Counted from the first letter of the stretch, positions 2-6,867 are shown. The stretch is DNA of 6,867 nt from a bacterium (GCA_027452085.1 DAIDHG010000049.1:1-6867); one strand, 5' to 3'. The notes: generated by a model from the letters alone, not told the origin. Made by a program: numbers and translations.

Positions 2-1765
2 GGTATTTCTCAAGAAATCAATACTACGCTCCTTCAGGCCCGCCAGCAGGCTATTGGGCAGATTCATAGCCAACTTTCCGGCTATGGTAATGAAGGCTTG
101 GCTATGTTCCTCGCAAATATGGCACAGGCTGATGAAGGGCGCTTGGGCAATGTGGACTTTAACGCATTTGCCAAGGCCAATGAGTCCGGCCCGCTAGCGC
201 GCGCCAATGCGGTTGCGCGGGCGTTTCGTGCCAACCCGCGCATGAAGCAGTTTCCTAAATATGGTGAAATTGCTAAAAGCGGCGCGTTTGCCAAAGCTGA
301 TTTGGATGTTGGCACGCTGACTAACTTCTCGCAAATCACTGGTGGTCAGGCGCTTGGCTATGTGTCGCTTGATACCATGATGGCGCGAGGCACTGTGCGG
401 CCTTCCTCGTTCACTCTGTATCAGTGCTTGAACAAATCTGCGGCTAATCAGGTTGTTGACTATTGGGCCTATGCGTCGGCTACAGGTGGTGCGCTTCCTG
501 GTTCGGCGTTTGCCTCGTATTCTTCGGTGAATAGCGGTGCGCTTGCTACCAATGCGGGCCAATACTCGCTGAAGTATATTACCCTTCAGTTGGCTCTTGA
601 TGGTCGTGCTATCACGACTGCCTTGGCGGCTCAGAACTCGTTTGTGAACGTGGCTGAGCAGGAAAACACCAATGCGGCCTTGGCGGTTCTTGAGACCATC
701 AACTGGGCTTGCTATTGGGGTAATCCGACCAACTATCCGAACCAGTTTGCAGGCTTGGCGCAGACGATCCCCACTACCAATCAGATTGATTTTCAACAAT
801 ATCTGAATGAAGTGTCTGGGCTTGGATACAGTGTTGAGCAGAACGTGTTCAACCTGATTTATGAGCAAGCGGCTTCTATCACCAGCTACCGCACGTATGG
901 TATCGTTACCCATGCGTTCATGTCGCCAATTATGGCTGGTGCGCTGCAGACCTTGACCACCACGCTGTTGAACAACCTTGTCAATGGTAAGGGCTTCACT
1001 GATCACTCTGGTATTATTGTGAACGGTGATCTACAAGGCATGAATACCCGCTTTGGCGATATTCACTTCCCTGTTGACTTGTTCATTACCTCGCGTGACA
1101 AACCGGCTCAGGCTATTGTCTATGACAATGGTACGTCGCCTGTTACCGTCACCAATCCGACCAAGCCTGCTTCGGTCACTGTGACTGCCAGCGGCACGGC
1201 TAATGGCTCTGATTGGACGACTGCCTATGTCGCCAACAGCGGTGATTATGTCTATGCTGTGGCGTCTATGAATGGCAGCATGACCGAATCCACGCTTACC
1301 TATGGTGCGGCTACGGGCATTGCGGCTGGTGGTGCGTATTCGGTGGTCATTGCGCCTCCGGCTGACGCAACTGCTTCGGTGTTCCGTGTGTATCGTTCTG
1401 GCAATGGCTTGACGCTTGCTCAGGTCACTGCGATTAGCAGCGCGGCGCAGCAGGCTGACTTGTTCCGTTTTGTTGGTGAGGTTTTGGCTAATGGTTCTAG
1501 CAACGTCACTTTTGTTGACTTGAACACTCATATTCCTTCAAGCGAAACAATTTTCTTGTTGGATATGGATGAAGGTGATATGGCGCTTGATTTTCGTTAT
1601 CTGTTGCCGCTTAGCCGAATCAACCTGTTTGCCCAATCGCTTTACATGCCTTGGGCTATTGCAATGATTGGTGCTATTCGCAACCGGATTCCGAAATTCC
1701 ACGGTATGATTACCAACGTAATTGTTAATAATCCCGACTTTAATCCGCTGGCGACTAACCTTTAA
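2..1765 (+). CDS. Major capsid protein, SPO1/Twort/phage K (Herelleviridae)-like, with Ig/FN3-like insertion domain; 5' partial
   Basis: The frame of ORF 98..1765 is open back to position 2 (GISQEINTTLLQARQQAIGQIHSQLSGYGNEGLAMF...), so the true start lies upstream. Collinear motifs resemble the phage K/A511 capsid as I recall it: ETINWACYWG..QFAGLAQTI (cf. KTIEWASFYG..EFDGLAKLI), YGIVTHAFMSP (FGTATDAYMP), NPTKPASVTVT (NAPQPAKVTAT), VYRSG (IYRQG), FVDLNTHIPSSETIF (FVDKNETLPETADVF), LLPLSRINL...GAIRNRIPKFHGMITNV (LLPMMKLPL...GALALRAPKKWARIKNV). Confidence 0.88.
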   Translation, partial: GISQEINTTLLQARQQAIGQIHSQLSGYGNEGLAMFLANMAQADEGRLGNVDFNAFAKANESGPLARANAVARAFRANPRMKQFPKYGEIAKSGAFAKADLDVGTLTNFSQITGGQALGYVSLDTMMARGTVRPSSFTLYQCLNKSAANQVVDYWAYASATGGALPGSAFASYSSVNSGALATNAGQYSLKYITLQLALDGRAITTALAAQNSFVNVAEQENTNAALAVLETINWACYWGNPTNYPNQFAGLAQTIPTTNQIDFQQYLNEVSGLGYSVEQNVFNLIYEQAASITSYRTYGIVTHAFMSPIMAGALQTLTTTLLNNLVNGKGFTDHSGIIVNGDLQGMNTRFGDIHFPVDLFITSRDKPAQAIVYDNGTSPVTVTNPTKPASVTVTASGTANGSDWTTAYVANSGDYVYAVASMNGSMTESTLTYGAATGIAAGGAYSVVIAPPADATASVFRVYRSGNGLTLAQVTAISSAAQQADLFRFVGEVLANGSSNVTFVDLNTHIPSSETIFLLDMDEGDMALDFRYLLPLSRINLFAQSLYMPWAIAMIGAIRNRIPKFHGMITNVIVNNPDFNPLATNL

Positions 1766-1788
1766 GCCAGAGCCTATTTGAGTAATAC

Positions 1789-1826
1789 AAAACCCTTCTA
1801 GTGAAAACTAGAAGGGTTTTCTTTTG
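1789..1826. terminator. Bidirectional rho-independent terminator between the convergent capsid and HNH genes
   Basis: Perfect stem AAAACCCTTCTAG-tgaaaa-CTAGAAGGGTTTT followed by CTTTT, with an A-tract on the left and a T-tract on the right. It lies between the stop codons at 1765 (+) and 1827 (-). Confidence 0.85.
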
Positions 1827-3419
1827 TCACGGCTTCCAGACAACAATATGGCGTTTAGGCGTCCATATCTTAAAAATACCATTTGCTCTGATATTGTCTT
1901 CTCGTGTATATTCTTCGTTATAATATAACAAATTACTTGCCATCTTATTTTCGTTAGACAGGTACCGTTGATGCTGAACGCGATCTGGATACACCCATTG
2001 AAAAGATTCAGGGCTGTATCCAATATGTTCAAAACCTATGGTTTCGTGACCTCCACCATCTGCATATCGACTATCAACAAAAGTGCGTATAGGTTTTACC
2101 CCGTAAAAAGACCACAGAGCTTTCATAATTTTACTCATTCCTCCCGGCACATGCCCATGGAAAGCAAGACGGTCACACTCCCATGTATCTTCTTTATCAT
2201 GAAATTCACCAAGCCCAAAAAGAGTTTCTCCATCTGTCAAGCCGATTCTAATAGGCGCAATCACATTACCCATAACATGATGAGTATTCAAAAACATTTT
2301 TGCTTGCTCTGCATTTACGTCTATAATATCAAGTTTTCTTGCTCCAGGCGCACGTAGTGCAATACCAAGTTTTGATTTAAGCATGTTGATACAAGAAGCA
2401 CGTCTATTATACCATTCATGATCAAATAAGATTATAGGTTGATCAAACGTAGTTTGTGCCCATTTAGCCATTTTACCTTTTTGAGATGCAGGATTACGAT
2501 CACTGCCAAAGAAAGTAGAAATAATGCAAAAAATGCGAGATTTGCCTTCAATACTGGCCAAAGTCCAAGACCCGTTGCCGTTATATACTGCGTGGATATT
2601 TTCTTTAGCAAGCGTTTGCCTTATGGTTTGCTGTTTCAAAAATATTTTGTCTTCTACAGGCATCACTGATTTAGGTAGCCATTCCAAATTATAGATACTT
2701 TTTTGCCGACTATAATTACAAGATTCGCAAGTGAGGGCAAGATTTTGTGTGCTGCTTCTGCCCCCACGAGCGCGAGGCAAAATATGTTCAATGGTAACTT
2801 TTTCCATTGGGCTATTACAAAAATAGCAATAGTCGGCTTGCCAAGCATGAAGACGTGCGATTACCGACTGGTCAATCAGTTTATCTTCAGTCTTTTTCAC
2901 GTAGCCAGACTTAGTATTGCCCTCTAAATCCCATCGCTTATGCCGAGAAATATTACGACGCTCATAACTTTTTGCTTTCCATTCTGGATCAGTTGCGCGT
3001 CTTGTGGCCGTATATTCGCGATGATATTTACGGCGTTCGTCTATTGGGCGTTTGGCATACTGCTTTTTGTTTGATTCACGTATTTTTTCAGGGTTGTTTT
3101 TGCCCCATTCTCTTTGCCATGCAAGAATTTTATCTCGGTATTCCGCGTCATTGTTGTACCGATCTTTCATGCGTGAAGCGTGTTTATTTCTATTTTTTTC
3201 TTTGTATTCTTTTATTTTATCAGGATTTGTTTCGCGAAATGCTTTCGCTCTAGCAGCAGATGCAGATCGTTGCTCAGGGGTAAACTGCTCCCGCGCTTTA
3301 GCATTGCGAAGTTTATGGCAATCCCTACAAAACGGCTTGTGCCCATCTTTATAGGCTTTACCTTTGTTAAAATCATCAAGTGGCTTTTCTGTATGACAGT
3401 CTGTGCAAATCTTTATCAT
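1827..3419 (-). CDS. Zn-finger/HNH endonuclease fused to a Hef-like (degenerate Vsr/DUF559 + Mom-like GNAT) C-terminal region, copy B (530 aa)
   Basis: Start re-assigned to ATG 3419 (MIKICTDC), matching the paralog start MIKTCRTC. N-terminal CxxC..CxxC; HNH core YCYFC..TIEHILPRARGG..NLALTCESCN; C-terminal IILFDHEW..ARKL..FLNTHHVMG..WECDRLAF..GGMSKIM..IRTFVDSRYADG..IGF typical of Hef-like phage proteins. Confidence 0.85.
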   Translation of the reverse strand: MIKICTDCHTEKPLDDFNKGKAYKDGHKPFCRDCHKLRNAKAREQFTPEQRSASAARAKAFRETNPDKIKEYKEKNRNKHASRMKDRYNNDAEYRDKILAWQREWGKNNPEKIRESNKKQYAKRPIDERRKYHREYTATRRATDPEWKAKSYERRNISRHKRWDLEGNTKSGYVKKTEDKLIDQSVIARLHAWQADYCYFCNSPMEKVTIEHILPRARGGRSSTQNLALTCESCNYSRQKSIYNLEWLPKSVMPVEDKIFLKQQTIRQTLAKENIHAVYNGNGSWTLASIEGKSRIFCIISTFFGSDRNPASQKGKMAKWAQTTFDQPIILFDHEWYNRRASCINMLKSKLGIALRAPGARKLDIIDVNAEQAKMFLNTHHVMGNVIAPIRIGLTDGETLFGLGEFHDKEDTWECDRLAFHGHVPGGMSKIMKALWSFYGVKPIRTFVDSRYADGGGHETIGFEHIGYSPESFQWVYPDRVQHQRYLSNENKMASNLLYYNEEYTREDNIRANGIFKIWTPKRHIVVWKP

Positions 3420-3426
3420 GAAAAAT

Positions 3427-3456
3427 AATATAGCATAAATCGTCAAATCTGTCAAG
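3427..3456 (-). promoter_or_regulatory. Sigma70/RpoD promoter for HNH copy B; leaderless transcript
   Basis: The minus strand reads CTTGAC-agatttgacgatttatg(17)-CTATATT-atttttc-ATG. There is no Shine-Dalgarno, and the ATG sits at the expected +1. Confidence 0.75.
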
Positions 3457-3489
3457 CCTGTTTGCTCACAATTTGTATAAGCTTTTTTA

Positions 3490-5136
3490 TCACGGTTCCC
3501 ACACAACAATATGACGCTTAGGCGTCCATATCTTGAAAATACCATTTGCCTTGATATTGTCTTCTCGCGAGGCATCTTCACGTATATAAAGTAAATTGCG
3601 CAGCATTTTATTCATATTTGATAAAAAGCGTTGATGCTGTACTCGATTTGGGAGCACCCATTGATAGGATTCAGGGCTGTAGCCAACATGCTTAAAGCCT
3701 ATAGTTTCATGACCGCCACCATCGGCATATCGACTATCTACAAAAGTGCGTATAGGTTTAGCACCTTTTGTAGCCCATAGCGACTTCATGATGCGACTCA
3801 TGCCTCCAGGCACATGCCCATGAAAAGCTAACCGATCACATTCCCATACCTCACCTTTATCATGAAATTCACCAAGCCCAAAAAGAGTTTCCCCATCTGT
3901 CAAGCCGATTCTAATAGGCGCGTTGACATTACCCATAACGTGATGCGTATCAAGAAATTCTTTTGCGTCGGTAGCATTGACATCAATTAAATCTAATTTG
4001 CGCGCACCGGGAGCACGTAATGCAATTCCAAGTTTAGATTTAAGCATGTTGATGCAAGAAGCACGTCTATTGTACCATTCGTGGTCAAAAAGAATAATGG
4101 GGGCTTCAAAATGTTCTTGTGCCCATTTTGCCATTCGGCCATTGCGAGACGCAGGATTGCGGTCACTACCAAAAAAAGTAGAAATTATGACTAGGATTTT
4201 GGTTTTGGCATTTGGTGCGGTAATTTCCCATGAACCATCAGGCAAAAGATTGGCAATAATATCAGCATCTTTTAAGTCTTTTTTAATATTGCGGGATTGC
4301 AAATATGTATGATTTTCAACAGGAAACACTTTTCGGGGACGCCAATCAAGATGATAAATTCTATCCTTGCGTCCTGAATTGCATAGTACGCAAGTTAAAA
4401 CTAAATTTTGATCCGTACTAGGACCACCACGTTTACGCGGCAAGATATGTTCAATTGTAAATTTTTCTAAAGGAATATTACAAAAATAGCAGTGATCTTT
4501 TTGCCAGCCATGCAACCGGCGTAAGATAGGAGCATCAATTACTTTATCTGATGCACCGCGTATCCAGCTTGAATTAGAGATAACGTCTTTATGCCAATTT
4601 TTATGCCTGTAAACAGTTTTAATTTCTTTTTCGCGTTTGTGCCAATCAAGATCGGTTTTGCGCTTGTTTAACGCCCAATCACGACGATACATATTTATTT
4701 TTTCTTGATTTTTTTGCTCCCATAATTCGCGTTTTGCTTTCTTTCTTTCTATACAAGTGGCTTTGCGCGCTTTACGGCTAGATGCAAGCATCTGCTCTTT
4801 AAAACTTGCATCAGAATTGAATCTAATTTTAAAATCTTCAAAATTTAAAATTTCTTTTTGATCTTGATTTTGACGTTGATACCGCCGCCAAGATGCAATA
4901 ACCTCGTGCTCTTTTTGCCTGTATTTTTTTAATGCTTGTTTGGCAGAATCAGGGTTATGTTGCCGCCGCGTTTTTGCTTTAGCAGCATTTTCTTTTGAAT
5001 TTGCAGCGTACCGCAAACGCGCTTTTTCTCTTGCACAATCTTTACATTCATTGTTGTACCCATCTTTAATATGCTTGTTTATTGTATAATCAGCATATGT
5101 TTTTTCTATTTTGCATGTACGGCATGTTTTAATCAT
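3490..5136 (-). CDS. Zn-finger/HNH endonuclease fused to a Hef-like (degenerate Vsr/DUF559 + Mom-like GNAT) C-terminal region, copy A (548 aa)
   Basis: CRTC..CKDC Zn finger; Lys/Arg-rich helical linker; HNH HCYFC..TIEHILPRKRGG..NLVLTCVLCN; C-terminal half highly similar to copy B (37 consecutive identical residues PIILFDHEW...GARKLD). Confidence 0.87.
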   Translation of the reverse strand: MIKTCRTCKIEKTYADYTINKHIKDGYNNECKDCAREKARLRYAANSKENAAKAKTRRQHNPDSAKQALKKYRQKEHEVIASWRRYQRQNQDQKEILNFEDFKIRFNSDASFKEQMLASSRKARKATCIERKKAKRELWEQKNQEKINMYRRDWALNKRKTDLDWHKREKEIKTVYRHKNWHKDVISNSSWIRGASDKVIDAPILRRLHGWQKDHCYFCNIPLEKFTIEHILPRKRGGPSTDQNLVLTCVLCNSGRKDRIYHLDWRPRKVFPVENHTYLQSRNIKKDLKDADIIANLLPDGSWEITAPNAKTKILVIISTFFGSDRNPASRNGRMAKWAQEHFEAPIILFDHEWYNRRASCINMLKSKLGIALRAPGARKLDLIDVNATDAKEFLDTHHVMGNVNAPIRIGLTDGETLFGLGEFHDKGEVWECDRLAFHGHVPGGMSRIMKSLWATKGAKPIRTFVDSRYADGGGHETIGFKHVGYSPESYQWVLPNRVQHQRFLSNMNKMLRNLLYIREDASREDNIKANGIFKIWTPKRHIVVWEP

Positions 5137-5142
5137 GGAACA

Positions 5143-5172
5143 TATATAGCACCAAAATCAAGCCACGTCAAT
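5143..5172 (-). promoter_or_regulatory. Sigma70/RpoD promoter for HNH copy A; leaderless transcript
   Basis: The minus strand reads ATTGAC-gtggcttgattttggtg(17)-CTATATA-tgttcc-ATG, with no SD. Confidence 0.7.
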
Positions 5173-5177
5173 AGGCT

Positions 5178-5212
5178 TACTGTCAGAAAAATGTAGCATT
5201 TTTCGGACAGTA
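5178..5212. repeat. 35-bp imperfect palindrome between divergent promoters (candidate operator or hairpin)
   Basis: TACTGTCaGAAAAATG-tag-CATTTTTCgGACAGTA: 16-bp arms with one mismatch and a 3-nt centre. Confidence 0.8.
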
Positions 5213-5217
5213 TTTGA

Positions 5218-5252: not shown

Positions 5253-5320
5253 GGTCTCCTAGGTTGTTATGACTTTTAGCACCGTCTCAGCCTTGATTGG
5301 CTTGGACGGTGCTCTTTTTT
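5253..5320 (+). ncRNA. Candidate ~68-nt small RNA with 5' anti-Shine-Dalgarno motif (UCUCCU)
   Basis: Bounded by a consensus promoter and an intrinsic terminator, with no credible ORF. The 5' segment GGUCUCCUAGGUUGUUAUGACUUUU precedes the terminator stem. Confidence 0.5.
5278..5320 (+). terminator. Rho-independent terminator
   Basis: AGCACCGTC-tcAGCC-ttgatt-GGCTtg-GACGGTGCT followed by CTTTTTT. Confidence 0.8.
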
Positions 5321-5336: not shown

Positions 5337-5717
5337 ATGAGAATTCAAGCAAAGCTAAATCCAGCGTCTCACATTCACAAATCCTGGCGTTTGCAAGCGC
5401 GTATTGGCGGTACGCTTAATGGTGTGTATTTCAAACTTCGCACAAATCGTGAATATGTTTCTGATGAAGTGCCGCCGCATTTGCTTGCTGGTCTTAATGG
5501 GCATCGGCATGTGCAGCTAGAAATGATGAGCGAGCCTATGGTGATTGATATTAAGGTAGAGCCAGAGGTATCTCCTTTTGTGCAACCTATTATTCCTCTT
5601 CCTTCTCCGCAAGAAGATGTTGCACCTATTGAGGATGCTGCATCTAGCATGGACGAAGTTGCGGCTATTGAGGAACAGACCCCTAAGAAGCGTGGACGGC
5701 CAGCCAAGGCTGTGTGA
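5337..5717 (+). CDS. Hypothetical phage protein (126 aa) with acidic/Pro-rich linker and C-terminal AT-hook (KKRGRPAK)
   Basis: Globular-looking N-terminus, low-complexity acidic tail and RGRP motif. It occupies the small-gene slot that follows the capsid gene in SPO1-like modules. Confidence 0.75.
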   Translation: MRIQAKLNPASHIHKSWRLQARIGGTLNGVYFKLRTNREYVSDEVPPHLLAGLNGHRHVQLEMMSEPMVIDIKVEPEVSPFVQPIIPLPSPQEDVAPIEDAASSMDEVAAIEEQTPKKRGRPAKAV

Positions 5718-5718
5718 T

Positions 5719-5844
5719 ATGGACCCATTCTTTCAACTACCTAAGCCCTACAAATCAGTGTTAAAATACTCGTTGGCGTCAATACCGTATTTTCCTTGGT
5801 TTGTCTGGAAATCGGTTTTAAAATATGAGTTGAGTGATGGCTAA
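5719..5844 (+). CDS. Putative 41-aa microprotein MDPFFQLPKPYKSVLKYSLASIPYFPWFVWKSVLKYELSDG
   Basis: The ATG lies 1 nt after the upstream stop and its own stop overlaps the next start. The internal repeat KSVLKY x2 differs only at three synonymous third-codon positions. Confidence 0.6.
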   Translation: MDPFFQLPKPYKSVLKYSLASIPYFPWFVWKSVLKYELSDG

Positions 5845-6367
5845 AAAAGCGGTTATCCCGCAAGCCCCTGCTATATCTGTTCAAGAACTTCCCCCTCCTA
5901 ATCCATACCGATCAGTAACTTTTGCTGATATGCCGCGCTATGTGGAGCATCAAGAAAAGATGCTGCCAGAGAATTTGCATGCTTTGGCAAATGAGATTGT
6001 GCGGTTGAGCAGATTAGGCAACTCGTGGAGCGGCATGGCGGGACGGCTAGGGCTGTTTCCTGATGAGTTGAGGAAACTATGCATGGCTTATCCAGAACTG
6101 GCTAGAGCAGCCGCATTTGGGCTTGGTGTGGGTTCTGAGGATATGACGCAGATGGTTTATGAGAAAGCTATTGTGGAAAAGGATTTGGCAGCAGCGACAT
6201 TCTGGTTGAAAGCGCGAGGCGGCTTTGAGCCACCACCGCAAAAAGGCACAAGCATTTCTGTAACATCTGGGGATGTGACAGTGAGTGTGGATTTAGATCG
6301 ACTGCGTGATATGGCGGCAGAACAGGCTAATTTGATTGATGGTGAATTTACTGATGTGGAGCCTTAG
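5837..6367 (+). CDS. Terminase small subunit-like HTH protein
   Basis: HTH-like segment (LSRLGNSWSGMAGRLGLFPDELRKL..YPELARA..G) followed by DLAAATFWLKARGG, a motif typical of TerS-like proteins, then a beta-rich segment and an acidic IDGEF tail. Start is GTG 5834 or ATG 5837. Confidence 0.65.
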   Translation: MAKKAVIPQAPAISVQELPPPNPYRSVTFADMPRYVEHQEKMLPENLHALANEIVRLSRLGNSWSGMAGRLGLFPDELRKLCMAYPELARAAAFGLGVGSEDMTQMVYEKAIVEKDLAAATFWLKARGGFEPPPQKGTSISVTSGDVTVSVDLDRLRDMAAEQANLIDGEFTDVEP

Positions 6368-6398: not shown

Positions 6399-6867
6399 AT
6401 GTCCGGTGGTATCAGCGAACCAATTTTAGATTACGGCTCAGGCCCAATCACTTCTCAAGCCCTATGGCAGTGGGATAACACAGGTGCGTATCCGGTAGCC
6501 ACCGGCTATGGTTTAAATGGTATTTATACGCCAACCAAGACGGGCCTGATGCCGCAAGATTTACAAGACTTTGTTGGAGTGCCGCTGCAATATTACCAGC
6601 CTGTACCGACGCCTGTACCGACACAAACACTTTTGAATTGGATTCGGTATGCTGAAGATTGGGTAGAGCAAGAAACGAGTTTGTTGCTTGCGCCGACTTG
6701 GGTAGCATCACCACCACTGCTTCAACAAGGGCAGACGCAAGACACGAGTGTTGTGCCATCTTCGGGACAAGGTATTCAAATTCAAGGGCAAGATTATGAT
6801 CTGGCCGATGCCGCGTATGATTTCTTTTTTCCCCGTGCGCAGGACGAGGGATGGATGGCGCAGCAAC
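6399..6867 (+). CDS. Head-tail adaptor/neck protein (SPO1/phage K-like); 3' partial
   Basis: Open frame from ATG 6399 to the window end (absent from the ORF track because it has no stop): MSGGISEPILDYGSG...TGLMPQDLQDFVGVPLQYYQPVPTPVPTQTLLNWIRYAEDWVEQETSLLLAPT...YDFFFPRAQDEGWMAQQ. The pattern and position resemble the neck protein that follows the capsid gene in Herelleviridae. Confidence 0.65.
   Translation, partial: MSGGISEPILDYGSGPITSQALWQWDNTGAYPVATGYGLNGIYTPTKTGLMPQDLQDFVGVPLQYYQPVPTPVPTQTLLNWIRYAEDWVEQETSLLLAPTWVASPPLLQQGQTQDTSVVPSSGQGIQIQGQDYDLADAAYDFFFPRAQDEGWMAQQ

Follow-up and report, generated by a model that had tools for sequence, protein, structure and literature searches.

What are two long, related genes doing on the opposite strand beside the major capsid gene of a phage, and why should each join an HNH nuclease to a domain that resembles Mom, the DNA-modification enzyme of phage Mu? 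The question is raised by a 6,867-bp contig from a bacterial assembly (GCA_027452085.1 DAIDHG010000049.1:1-6867), which we analyzed as a whole and refer to as the window, and by the two genes within it, here called paralogs A and B. Our conclusion is that A and B are probably mobile cut-and-mark genes of the homing type, in which an active Mom-like transferase would protect the genome that carries them.

Two Intact Paralogs Under Uneven Constraint

An original prediction, made from the sequence alone, described two full-length minus-strand paralogs beside a capsid gene. Both open reading frames are indeed intact, and the plus-strand gene at 2-1765, whose 5' end is lost at the contig end, is identified as the major capsid protein gene by its match to the phrog_752 major head protein (E 1e-40). 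For paralog A (530 aa; 1827-3419, minus strand) the ATG at 3419 was taken as the start, which brings its first residues into agreement with those of paralog B (548 aa; 3490-5136, minus strand). A longer, GTG-started reading of A (to 3581, 584 aa), which overlaps the 3' end of B and is probably spurious, was rejected. From N- to C-terminus both proteins consist of a zinc (Zn) ribbon with helical repeats (~2829-3419 in A, ~4492-5136 in B), an HNH domain (2709-2828 and 4360-4491), a Vsr-like domain that appears catalytically dead (2358-2678 and 4021-4341) and a Mom-like domain of the GNAT fold (1830-2357 and 3493-4020), all encoded on the minus strand. An AlphaFold2 model of full-length B reached a mean pLDDT (predicted local distance difference test) of 87.5.

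The two proteins are 55% identical over their full length (BLASTP, E = 0.0), with identity distributed unevenly among the domains: 29% in the N-terminus (first 195 residues), 61% in the HNH domain, 60% in the middle and 82% in the C-terminus (last 176 residues). In all domains the synonymous sites are close to saturation, and recent gene conversion was rejected on this ground as the source of the C-terminal similarity. In the Mom-like domain the nonsynonymous divergence (dN) is 0.14 and the proportion of synonymous differences (pS) 0.59, compared with a dN of 0.73 in the N-terminus; this combination of low dN with near-saturated synonymous sites indicates that the similarity of the Mom-like domains has been kept by purifying selection.

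An HNH Nuclease Added to a Decayed Vsr-Like Domain

HNH is the only Pfam domain above cut-off in both proteins. The HNH/HNH_5 models match residues 198-237 of A and 216-259 of B, with PF14279 at 40.1 and 32.7 bits (cut-off 27.5) and PF01844 at 33.9 and 32.8 bits (cut-off 21.4). The metal ligands and the H/N/N residues of the site (C216, C219, H230, N244, C249, C252 and N253 in B numbering) are invariant in 27 of 27 aligned family members, as expected of the intact HNH site that had been predicted, and so are both CxxC pairs (four cysteines) of the N-terminal Zn ribbon and a string of C-terminal residues. The HNH region was aligned with PDB 4h9d and with the Cas9 HNH domain; searched against the PDB, the 27-sequence profile returned HNH proteins only, and NCBIfam gave matches of the HNH region to IscB and Cas9d that were all sub-threshold. 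In PHROGs the Zn ribbon belongs to the phrog_1035 'endonuclease VII' family (E 1e-13) and the HNH region matches many HNH families, while an atlas search with the N-terminal 195 residues gave nothing beyond unnamed viral clusters (best 0.93) and a weak lead to the Stc1 zinc finger (0.87). Stand-alone Zn-ribbon/helical-repeat/HNH endonucleases (phrog_1035 and a gene of the related phage locus L026) match the N-terminal half of A and B and do not have the dead Vsr-like and Mom-like domains. The L026 protein, of 306 aa and encoded at the same site, aligns end to end with the N-terminal half of A (E 2e-11), pointing to an origin of the architecture by fusion of such a gene with a Hef-like C-terminal half.

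The domain that follows had been described as a Vsr-like segment without the usual catalytic residues, and this description is borne out. The IISTFFGSDR stretch is present in both A and B, as are the motifs quoted for the C-terminal region, and a profile of B residues 266-372 aligns with the MTES_1575/Vsr-type domain of 16 relatives (hhalign, 97.1%, E 5.9e-11) with the catalytic strand missing. Where those relatives have the ELD and IE.NG.YWH motifs, the HNH branch has hydrophobic residues, Ser or a 9-residue gap, and what the two have in common is confined to the final strand and helix (FD.EW...). The acidic and histidine residues that are catalytic in EDxHD nucleases are absent from the middle domain of this branch, in which only W, S, F, D and E are invariant. 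Folded alone from a 15-sequence alignment (pLDDT 88.5) and compared with 48,161 chains by VIA-align, the middle domain had I-Bth0305I as its top match (3r3p, Z 6.4), with Vsr at rank 3 (1cw0, Z 6.1) and a DUF559 protein at rank 4 (3hrl, Z 5.8); Foldseek with the isolated domain gave nothing below E 0.16 in the PDB, the rows listed (metallo-beta-lactamases) being noise. Given the modest Z scores and the empty Foldseek result, the Vsr-like homology rests mainly on the profile comparison. Judged by its residues, the middle domain is a catalytically dead Vsr-like nuclease, and with the Vsr-type catalytic strand deleted or replaced, cutting must fall to the added HNH domain.

A Mom-Like Domain That Keeps Catalytic Residues

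The C-terminal domain had been predicted to have a GNAT fold akin to that of Mom, and fold searches agree. The best Foldseek match in the PDB was Mu Mom (8bv8, E 2.5e-5, probability 1.00), followed by GNAT acetyltransferases and by the aminoacyl-tRNA-dependent lipid synthases A-PGS and MprF (probability 0.21-0.66). VIA-align likewise recovered the GNAT fold within B ~373-548 (Z 10.6-12.4, root-mean-square deviation 2.3-3.8 Å, 119-133 aligned residues). The top BFVD matches were phage 'homing endonuclease' or 'endonuclease-like' proteins (E ~1e-17), among them a 'putative homing endonuclease' of Pseudomonas phage PA5oct (E 2.7e-17), and a phage Mom appeared at E 1.7e-8. In PHROGs, the C-terminal ~190 residues matched phrog_3339 'homing endonuclease' (E 1.6e-24) and phrog_559 (E 5e-19), a family whose members bear a VSR-endonuclease signature and are encoded within introns of Bastillevirinae terminase genes (PMC11878797).

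To align the active sites we used Mu mom from NC_000929, with residue numbering checked against PMC13219725. A 176-sequence profile of the domain matched Mu Mom by hhalign (83.7% probability, E 8e-6) and paired Mom H58, R111, S124, D149, R151 and Y159 with B H399, R435, S447, D467, R469 and H476, respectively. Among the 176 sequences H399 is conserved in 175, R435 in 176, S447 in 144, D467 in 168, R469 in 149 and Y or H at position 476 in 175; R435, S447, D467 and R469 are also among the residues invariant in the 27 full-length members. In Mom itself R111, S124 and R151 are essential and the D149A mutant is greatly reduced, and the enzyme was reported in 2026 to transfer glycine from Gly-tRNA(Gly) to the adenine N6 of double-stranded DNA (Silva et al., 2026; PMC13219725). 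The original prediction had named a coenzyme A (CoA) pocket as the feature to look for, a criterion that is out of date because Mom is reported to use Gly-tRNA(Gly) and not acetyl-CoA. A GNAT fold and counterparts of the catalytic residues are common to Mom and to the C-termini of A and B. The two differ in that Mom is a stand-alone 241-aa dimer that marks its genome broadly, whereas the domain studied here forms the C-terminus of a nuclease, at an identity to Mom of ~15-19%. When two copies of the Mom-like domain were modeled as a homodimer, the score was 0.26 (mark 0.42), which speaks neither for nor against a dimer.

Unrelated DNA-binding modules are often acquired by homing endonucleases, and the domain might accordingly be non-catalytic, serving an ordinary HNH homing endonuclease as a DNA-binding or base-flipping clamp or as a dimerization module. 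Such a role would suit the fusion of the same C-terminal module to many N-terminal ones (HNH, Vsr-like, Zn fingers, helix-turn-helix (HTH) arrays and NUMOD3), and since the cleft of the Mom model has been proposed to bind DNA with a flipped adenine, conserved residues could reflect binding alone (PMC13219725). It is nevertheless unlikely, as the residues that Mom needs are the most conserved across 176 diverse members, which binding alone rarely demands, and the divergent N-terminus is the better candidate for sequence recognition.

A Branch of the Hef-Like Superfamily

To place the two genes among their relatives, we searched 1.84 billion representative sequences with residues 265-548 of B (HMMER) and found 7,454 proteins at E ≤ 1e-3, 909 of them at E ≤ 1e-10. 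Most of the 7,454 matches are 450-650 aa long, with the matched part at the C-terminus. A Pfam scan covering 86 of the best 150 relatives (ranks 17 to 102) detected HNH in 30, MTES_1575 in 16 (some also with Vsr or DUF559), DUF7487 in 19 and Mom (PF25680) in 14, and others carried DUF4379 zinc fingers, HTH arrays or NUMOD3; as the scanned proteins are the nearest relatives, the share with HNH is not that of the whole family. The full architecture of A and B recurs in 31 further full-length clusters (word-indexed search), which are metagenomic without exception. Among 50,697 phage records, tblastn matched 191 at ~25% identity, mainly from phages of Klebsiella, Acinetobacter, Campylobacter, Vibrio and Salmonella, with up to 10 places per genome and with many of the genes annotated as 'Hef-like homing endonuclease' or 'nuclease/acetyltransferase'. 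No record in this collection covered ≥80% of the query, which means that the HNH form is unrepresented in the GenBank phage collection at that sensitivity.

The Hef-type phage endonucleases have been placed in the EDxHD (Vsr-like) homing endonuclease family, which was defined from I-Bth0305I (Taylor et al., 2011; PMC3239194). Members of this group (phage U5 Hef, I-Bth0305I and the 'Hef-like' genes of Campylobacter, Acinetobacter and ViI-like phages) are homologous to the C-terminal half of A and B, and Hef-type genes resemble A and B in being free-standing and multicopy within a genome. A Vsr-type member, F348_163 of Campylobacter phage F348, matches the Mom-like profile (99.5%, E 5e-23) and lies directly after the capsid gene. 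In contrast to the Hef type, A and B have the catalytic strand (ELD...IE.NG.YWH) deleted or replaced, and an HNH domain added. Similarly, the fusions of a restriction endonuclease (REase) domain to Mom in jumbo phages such as PA5oct unite a Mom-like domain with a nuclease in a single chain, and a genome may hold several of them; they have been predicted to couple restriction with protective momylation, an acyl-CoA donor then being assumed (Iyer et al., 2021; PMC7824862). In these fusions the REase-fold domain is taken as the active nuclease, whereas in A and B it is apparently dead and HNH has been added, and the phage of A and B is smaller than jumbo phages, with a contig of 49 kb in its relative. 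From these sequence comparisons, A and B are a branch of the Hef-like (nuclease plus Mom-like) superfamily in which HNH replaces a decayed Vsr nuclease.

With nuclease-Mom fusions and the assignment of Hef to the EDxHD family already published (PMC7824862, PMC3239194), the novelty of A and B is lower than the original prediction suggested. A fusion of HNH with a Mom-like domain was not described in the literature searched, which included few subscription journals, and the supplements of PMC7824862 may list such proteins. Within that same literature, the replacement of Vsr by HNH with retention of a dead Vsr-like domain appears to be undescribed.

An Insertion Hot Spot Behind the Capsid Gene

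The position of A and B was compared with that in related phages by a metagenome scan with a capsid alignment. It yielded 22 loci, four of which were left out because they extend no more than 236 nt past the capsid gene; the 18 informative loci have at least 1.7 kb downstream, although two pairs (L011/L012 and L017/L019) may be duplicate samplings. One, two or three fusion genes directly follow the capsid gene in 9 of the 18, and none in the other 9. Four of the nine filled loci have them in antisense and five in sense orientation, so that the predicted antisense insertion is correct for A and B in the window and does not hold as a rule. In four of the nine loci that lack fusion genes, the next core gene follows after a gap of only 147-1105 nt. 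The other five hold different genes: a GIY-YIG homing endonuclease gene in the first, a DUF559 gene in antisense orientation in the second, a pair of Zn-ribbon genes (one of them with HNH) and a PAPS-reductase-like gene in the third, and genes for the salvage of nicotinamide adenine dinucleotide (NAD) in the last two. An insertion can be delimited by comparing L010 with L012, which are collinear and 94% and 90% identical on the two sides of a 1.77-kb segment with a fusion gene, in the place of which L010 has 107 nt.

The closest relative of the window, L001, is a 49-kb IMG/VR contig with the head protease upstream of the capsid gene. Behind the capsid gene follow a fusion gene of another subfamily (525 aa), an ortholog of B (549 aa, 72% identity), the conserved genes g126 and g177, a further fusion gene (459 aa), g156 and a GIY-YIG gene. 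Two fusion genes thus occupy the post-capsid site and a third lies 1 kb further on.

The occurrence of zero to three copies in either orientation, the other homing endonuclease genes at the same site and the clean insertion or deletion point to mobile, free-standing genes of the homing-endonuclease type, and an insertion hot spot colonized by such genes would give just this pattern of presence and absence. Of the alternatives offered by the original prediction, a homing endonuclease family with a swapped nuclease domain is therefore well supported. The second alternative, a cut-and-modify system on a single polypeptide, is a possibility that had been put forward before.

Small HNH proteins encoded beside the morphogenesis genes of HK97-like phages help the terminase in packaging, and because A and B sit within the head gene module they might be thought to act likewise. 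We consider this highly improbable: the copy number varies from zero to three, the orientation is not fixed, and the genes are absent from 9 of the 18 related loci. The proteins, at ~540 aa, also carry three additional domains, and their genes have promoters of their own and are lower in G+C.

Several further features were observed at these loci. The structural module of L001 (3117-4115, 5237-6616) holds four homing-endonuclease-type genes within ~10 kb, an unusually high number for a 49-kb contig. Post-capsid cargo includes genes for a NadR-like cytidylyltransferase-NUDIX protein, a nicotinamide phosphoribosyltransferase and a metallophosphoesterase in L017/L019 (7764-11618) and a PAPS-reductase/DUF3440 gene in L026 (5952-7190); such auxiliary metabolic genes in relatives mark the site as a general plasticity hot spot. 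Transfer RNA genes adjoin fusion genes in L008 (12648-13487; Leu, Pro and two Gln), L006 (9451-9612; Met and Arg) and L018 (9226-9478; Pro and Met), none of them being tRNA-Gly; two of these genes, spuriously translated, account for the N-terminal extension of one database protein (P0007).

Promoters Placed Directly Before the Start Codons

Each paralog had been predicted to have its own promoter. That of A is a sigma-70-like site at 3427-3455 on the minus strand (TTGACA-17-TATATT, with an upstream TG giving an extended -10; 11 of 12 matches), the -10 hexamer of which ends 7 nt before the ATG. At B, the promoter-like site at 5143-5171 (minus strand; TTGACG-17-TATATA) is weaker, with a -10 hexamer that ends 6 nt before the ATG and that lacks the final T, for which reason the promoter scan did not list it. 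The scan found 10 sites in the window overall, a total no higher than the 11.7 expected from shuffles, and the case for promoters therefore rests on position and on conservation in relatives. The layout seen at B also precedes its ortholog in L001, and a -35/-10 pair with the -10 ending 5-7 nt before the ATG was found in at least 8 of 15 family genes from different phages, among which no fewer than six besides A and B, in L001, L006, L007/L008 and L016, have this spacing (the regions read were window 3420-3455 and 5137-5171, L001 7965-8000 and 9671-9705, and others in L006, L007, L008 and L016). An exception is L018, which has a normal leader with AGGAG. The prediction of separate promoters is thereby sustained.

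As there is no room for a ribosome-binding site between the -10 hexamer and the ATG, the mRNAs would be leaderless, and we infer from this layout that leaderless mRNAs are a portable expression design of these mobile genes. Just upstream of the B promoter lies a conserved inverted repeat, GTCCGAAAAATGC...TTTTTC(G/T)GAC (window 5190-5215, minus strand; L001 7930-7958), which could be a terminator or an operator.

A Cut-and-Mark Model and Its Competitors

We propose that a hot spot just after the capsid gene takes in A and B, each with a promoter butted to its start codon. In their history, HNH and the Zn ribbon with helical repeats would have been added while the ancestral Vsr-like (EDxHD-type) nuclease decayed and stayed attached to the Mom-like domain, for which the dead domain may now be a structural partner. 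The divergent N-terminus would choose a DNA site, HNH would nick or cut that site in genomes without the element or its mark, and the Mom-like domain, as an active transferase, would attach an aminoacyl or acyl group to a base at this site or close to it. If Mom is a guide, a charged tRNA would be the donor. The mark would then protect the carrier genome.

Several points weigh against this proposal. Neither A nor B matches the Pfam Mom model PF25680 at E ≤ 1; the 14 matches to it among the 86 scanned relatives were counted at E ≤ 1e-3, and only 4 of them exceed the 27.1-bit cut-off. The 27-sequence profile found no Mom (8bv8) or GNAT chain in the PDB at E ≤ 10. Two residues of Mom, W48 (a dimer contact) and Y59, are not kept in A and B and have no counterpart in the hhalign alignment. 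The essential beta6-beta7 insertion of Mom, which lies between its last two strands, is aligned without confidence, although a helical segment of equal length is present, at low confidence, in the corresponding place. The top 50 VIA-align matches are ordinary GNATs, and because those that use CoA rank above Mom, the fold alone leaves the donor unfixed. Moreover, a modifier acting in trans would also mark the DNA of a co-infecting rival, and self-protection needs an argument from timing or hemi-modification. We know of no report of Mom-type adenine adducts from bulk nucleoside analyses of cultured phages with Hef-like genes, which would argue against genome-wide modification. The phage itself is uncultured, and the contigs of four public DNA runs contained no joints and no near-identical variant without A and B. 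In view of the missing Pfam and profile matches, the link to Mom rests on the fold, on the hhalign match and on the Pfam Mom matches in relatives, and the domain is better described as Mom-like, forming a sister group to the Mom family PF25680 instead of belonging to it.

The preserved active site and the promoters also bear on a neighboring interpretation, according to which A and B serve the phage as a weapon, a single-chain restriction-plus-momylation system with two specificities that marks its own DNA broadly and destroys unmarked DNA of the host or of rivals. It overlaps with the cut-and-mark proposal and differs from it mainly in the beneficiary and in the breadth of marking. This is exactly what has been predicted for the Mom domains fused to REase-fold nucleases in jumbo phages (PMC7824862), and it would suit the retention of Mom catalytic residues in a domain under strong purifying selection, the strong constitutive-type promoters, which would give early expression, and the tandem arrays of two to three members with different N-termini. 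However, close relatives can do without the genes, which are distributed patchily among them, and the genes share their site with GIY-YIG and HNH homing genes, which fits selfish mobility, and Hef-type proteins are classed as homing endonucleases (PMC3239194, PMC3296691). We therefore regard a benefit to the phage as the doubtful reading of the two, and homing genes that cut and mark for their own spread as the probable one.

Genomic Context of the Window

The window is the whole of contig C49 from an assembly of 88 contigs and 0.98 Mb, in which A and B were the only copies found. Possibly it is a phage contig that was binned together with a genome to which it does not belong. The bin is 92.9% complete with a G+C fraction of 0.444, and the contig, at 0.441 overall, ranks 62nd of the 69 contigs of at least 4 kb by tetranucleotide distance. 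Its G+C fits that of the bin only by averaging, as capsid-type genes (~0.50-0.54) are combined with inserted genes (0.35-0.43); the capsid gene (0.50-0.54) and paralogs A and B (0.35-0.43) differ accordingly. The capsid protein is 88% identical to that of the IMG/VR contig L001/L004. Megablast with the whole window gave no match among the 50,697 phage records, and no tRNA genes or Rfam families were found in the window. A contig of 3,682 nt from a public run (run X1, record 5) spans window positions 1250-4937 and thereby the capsid end, A and most of B, with 159 differences and an in-frame 6-nt deletion at 4858, in the variable N-terminal region of B; as it bridges the same genes in spite of these differences, a diverged strain has the same layout.

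Between the convergent capsid gene and A lies a hairpin (1784-1825; inverted repeat with 19-nt arms, 89% complementary) that is terminator-like on the plus strand, where a site was called at 1789-1820. A second inverted repeat, a hairpin followed by a T run on the plus strand (5278-5313), precedes g126, is conserved in L001 (~7707-7745) and may represent the original terminator of the capsid transcript, split from the capsid gene by the inserted genes. The conserved g126 (5337-5717, plus strand; 126 aa) directly follows the capsid gene in relatives with an empty site. Its product ends in an AT-hook-like motif, PKKRGRPAK (Pfam AT_hook, E 0.05), which is also present in the L001 ortholog and is preceded by an acidic region encoded by three direct repeats of 18-21 nt (5613-5674). 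Downstream on the same strand are g177 (5834-6367), a conserved 177-aa gene without a family match, and g156 (6399-6867), the start of a conserved gene of ~330 aa that is cut by the contig end and whose L001 ortholog has a weak tail-fibre match.

Implications for Hef-Like Genes

With 7,454 representative clusters, the fusion of a nuclease with a Mom-like domain is among the most abundant families of the homing-endonuclease type in phage metagenomes. That the nuclease has been replaced in A and B, with the pair of dead Vsr-like and Mom-like domains kept under strong selection, suggests that the indispensable core is this pair and not the nuclease. A broader proposal, which we put forward tentatively as a possibility, is that Hef-like genes are mobile cut-and-mark cassettes that put a tRNA-borne amino acid on a base inside the nuclease's own site. 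The chemistry now described for Mom, a Gly-tRNA-dependent glycyl transfer (PMC13219725), makes DNA aminoacylation by these nucleases directly testable.

If such cut-and-mark action is real, it would amount to portable immunity, allowing conserved sequences such as the ends of capsid genes to be targeted in any phage that the element enters. The leaderless promoter-to-ATG design would provide expression without host-specific translation signals, and tandem paralogs would represent two independent specificities. If the Mom-like domain is active and site-specific, these proteins could also serve as programmable reagents for marking or nicking DNA. For the family as a whole, tRNA-dependent, site-specific aminoacylation of DNA would be widespread, extending over thousands of gene clusters rather than being a peculiarity of phage Mu.

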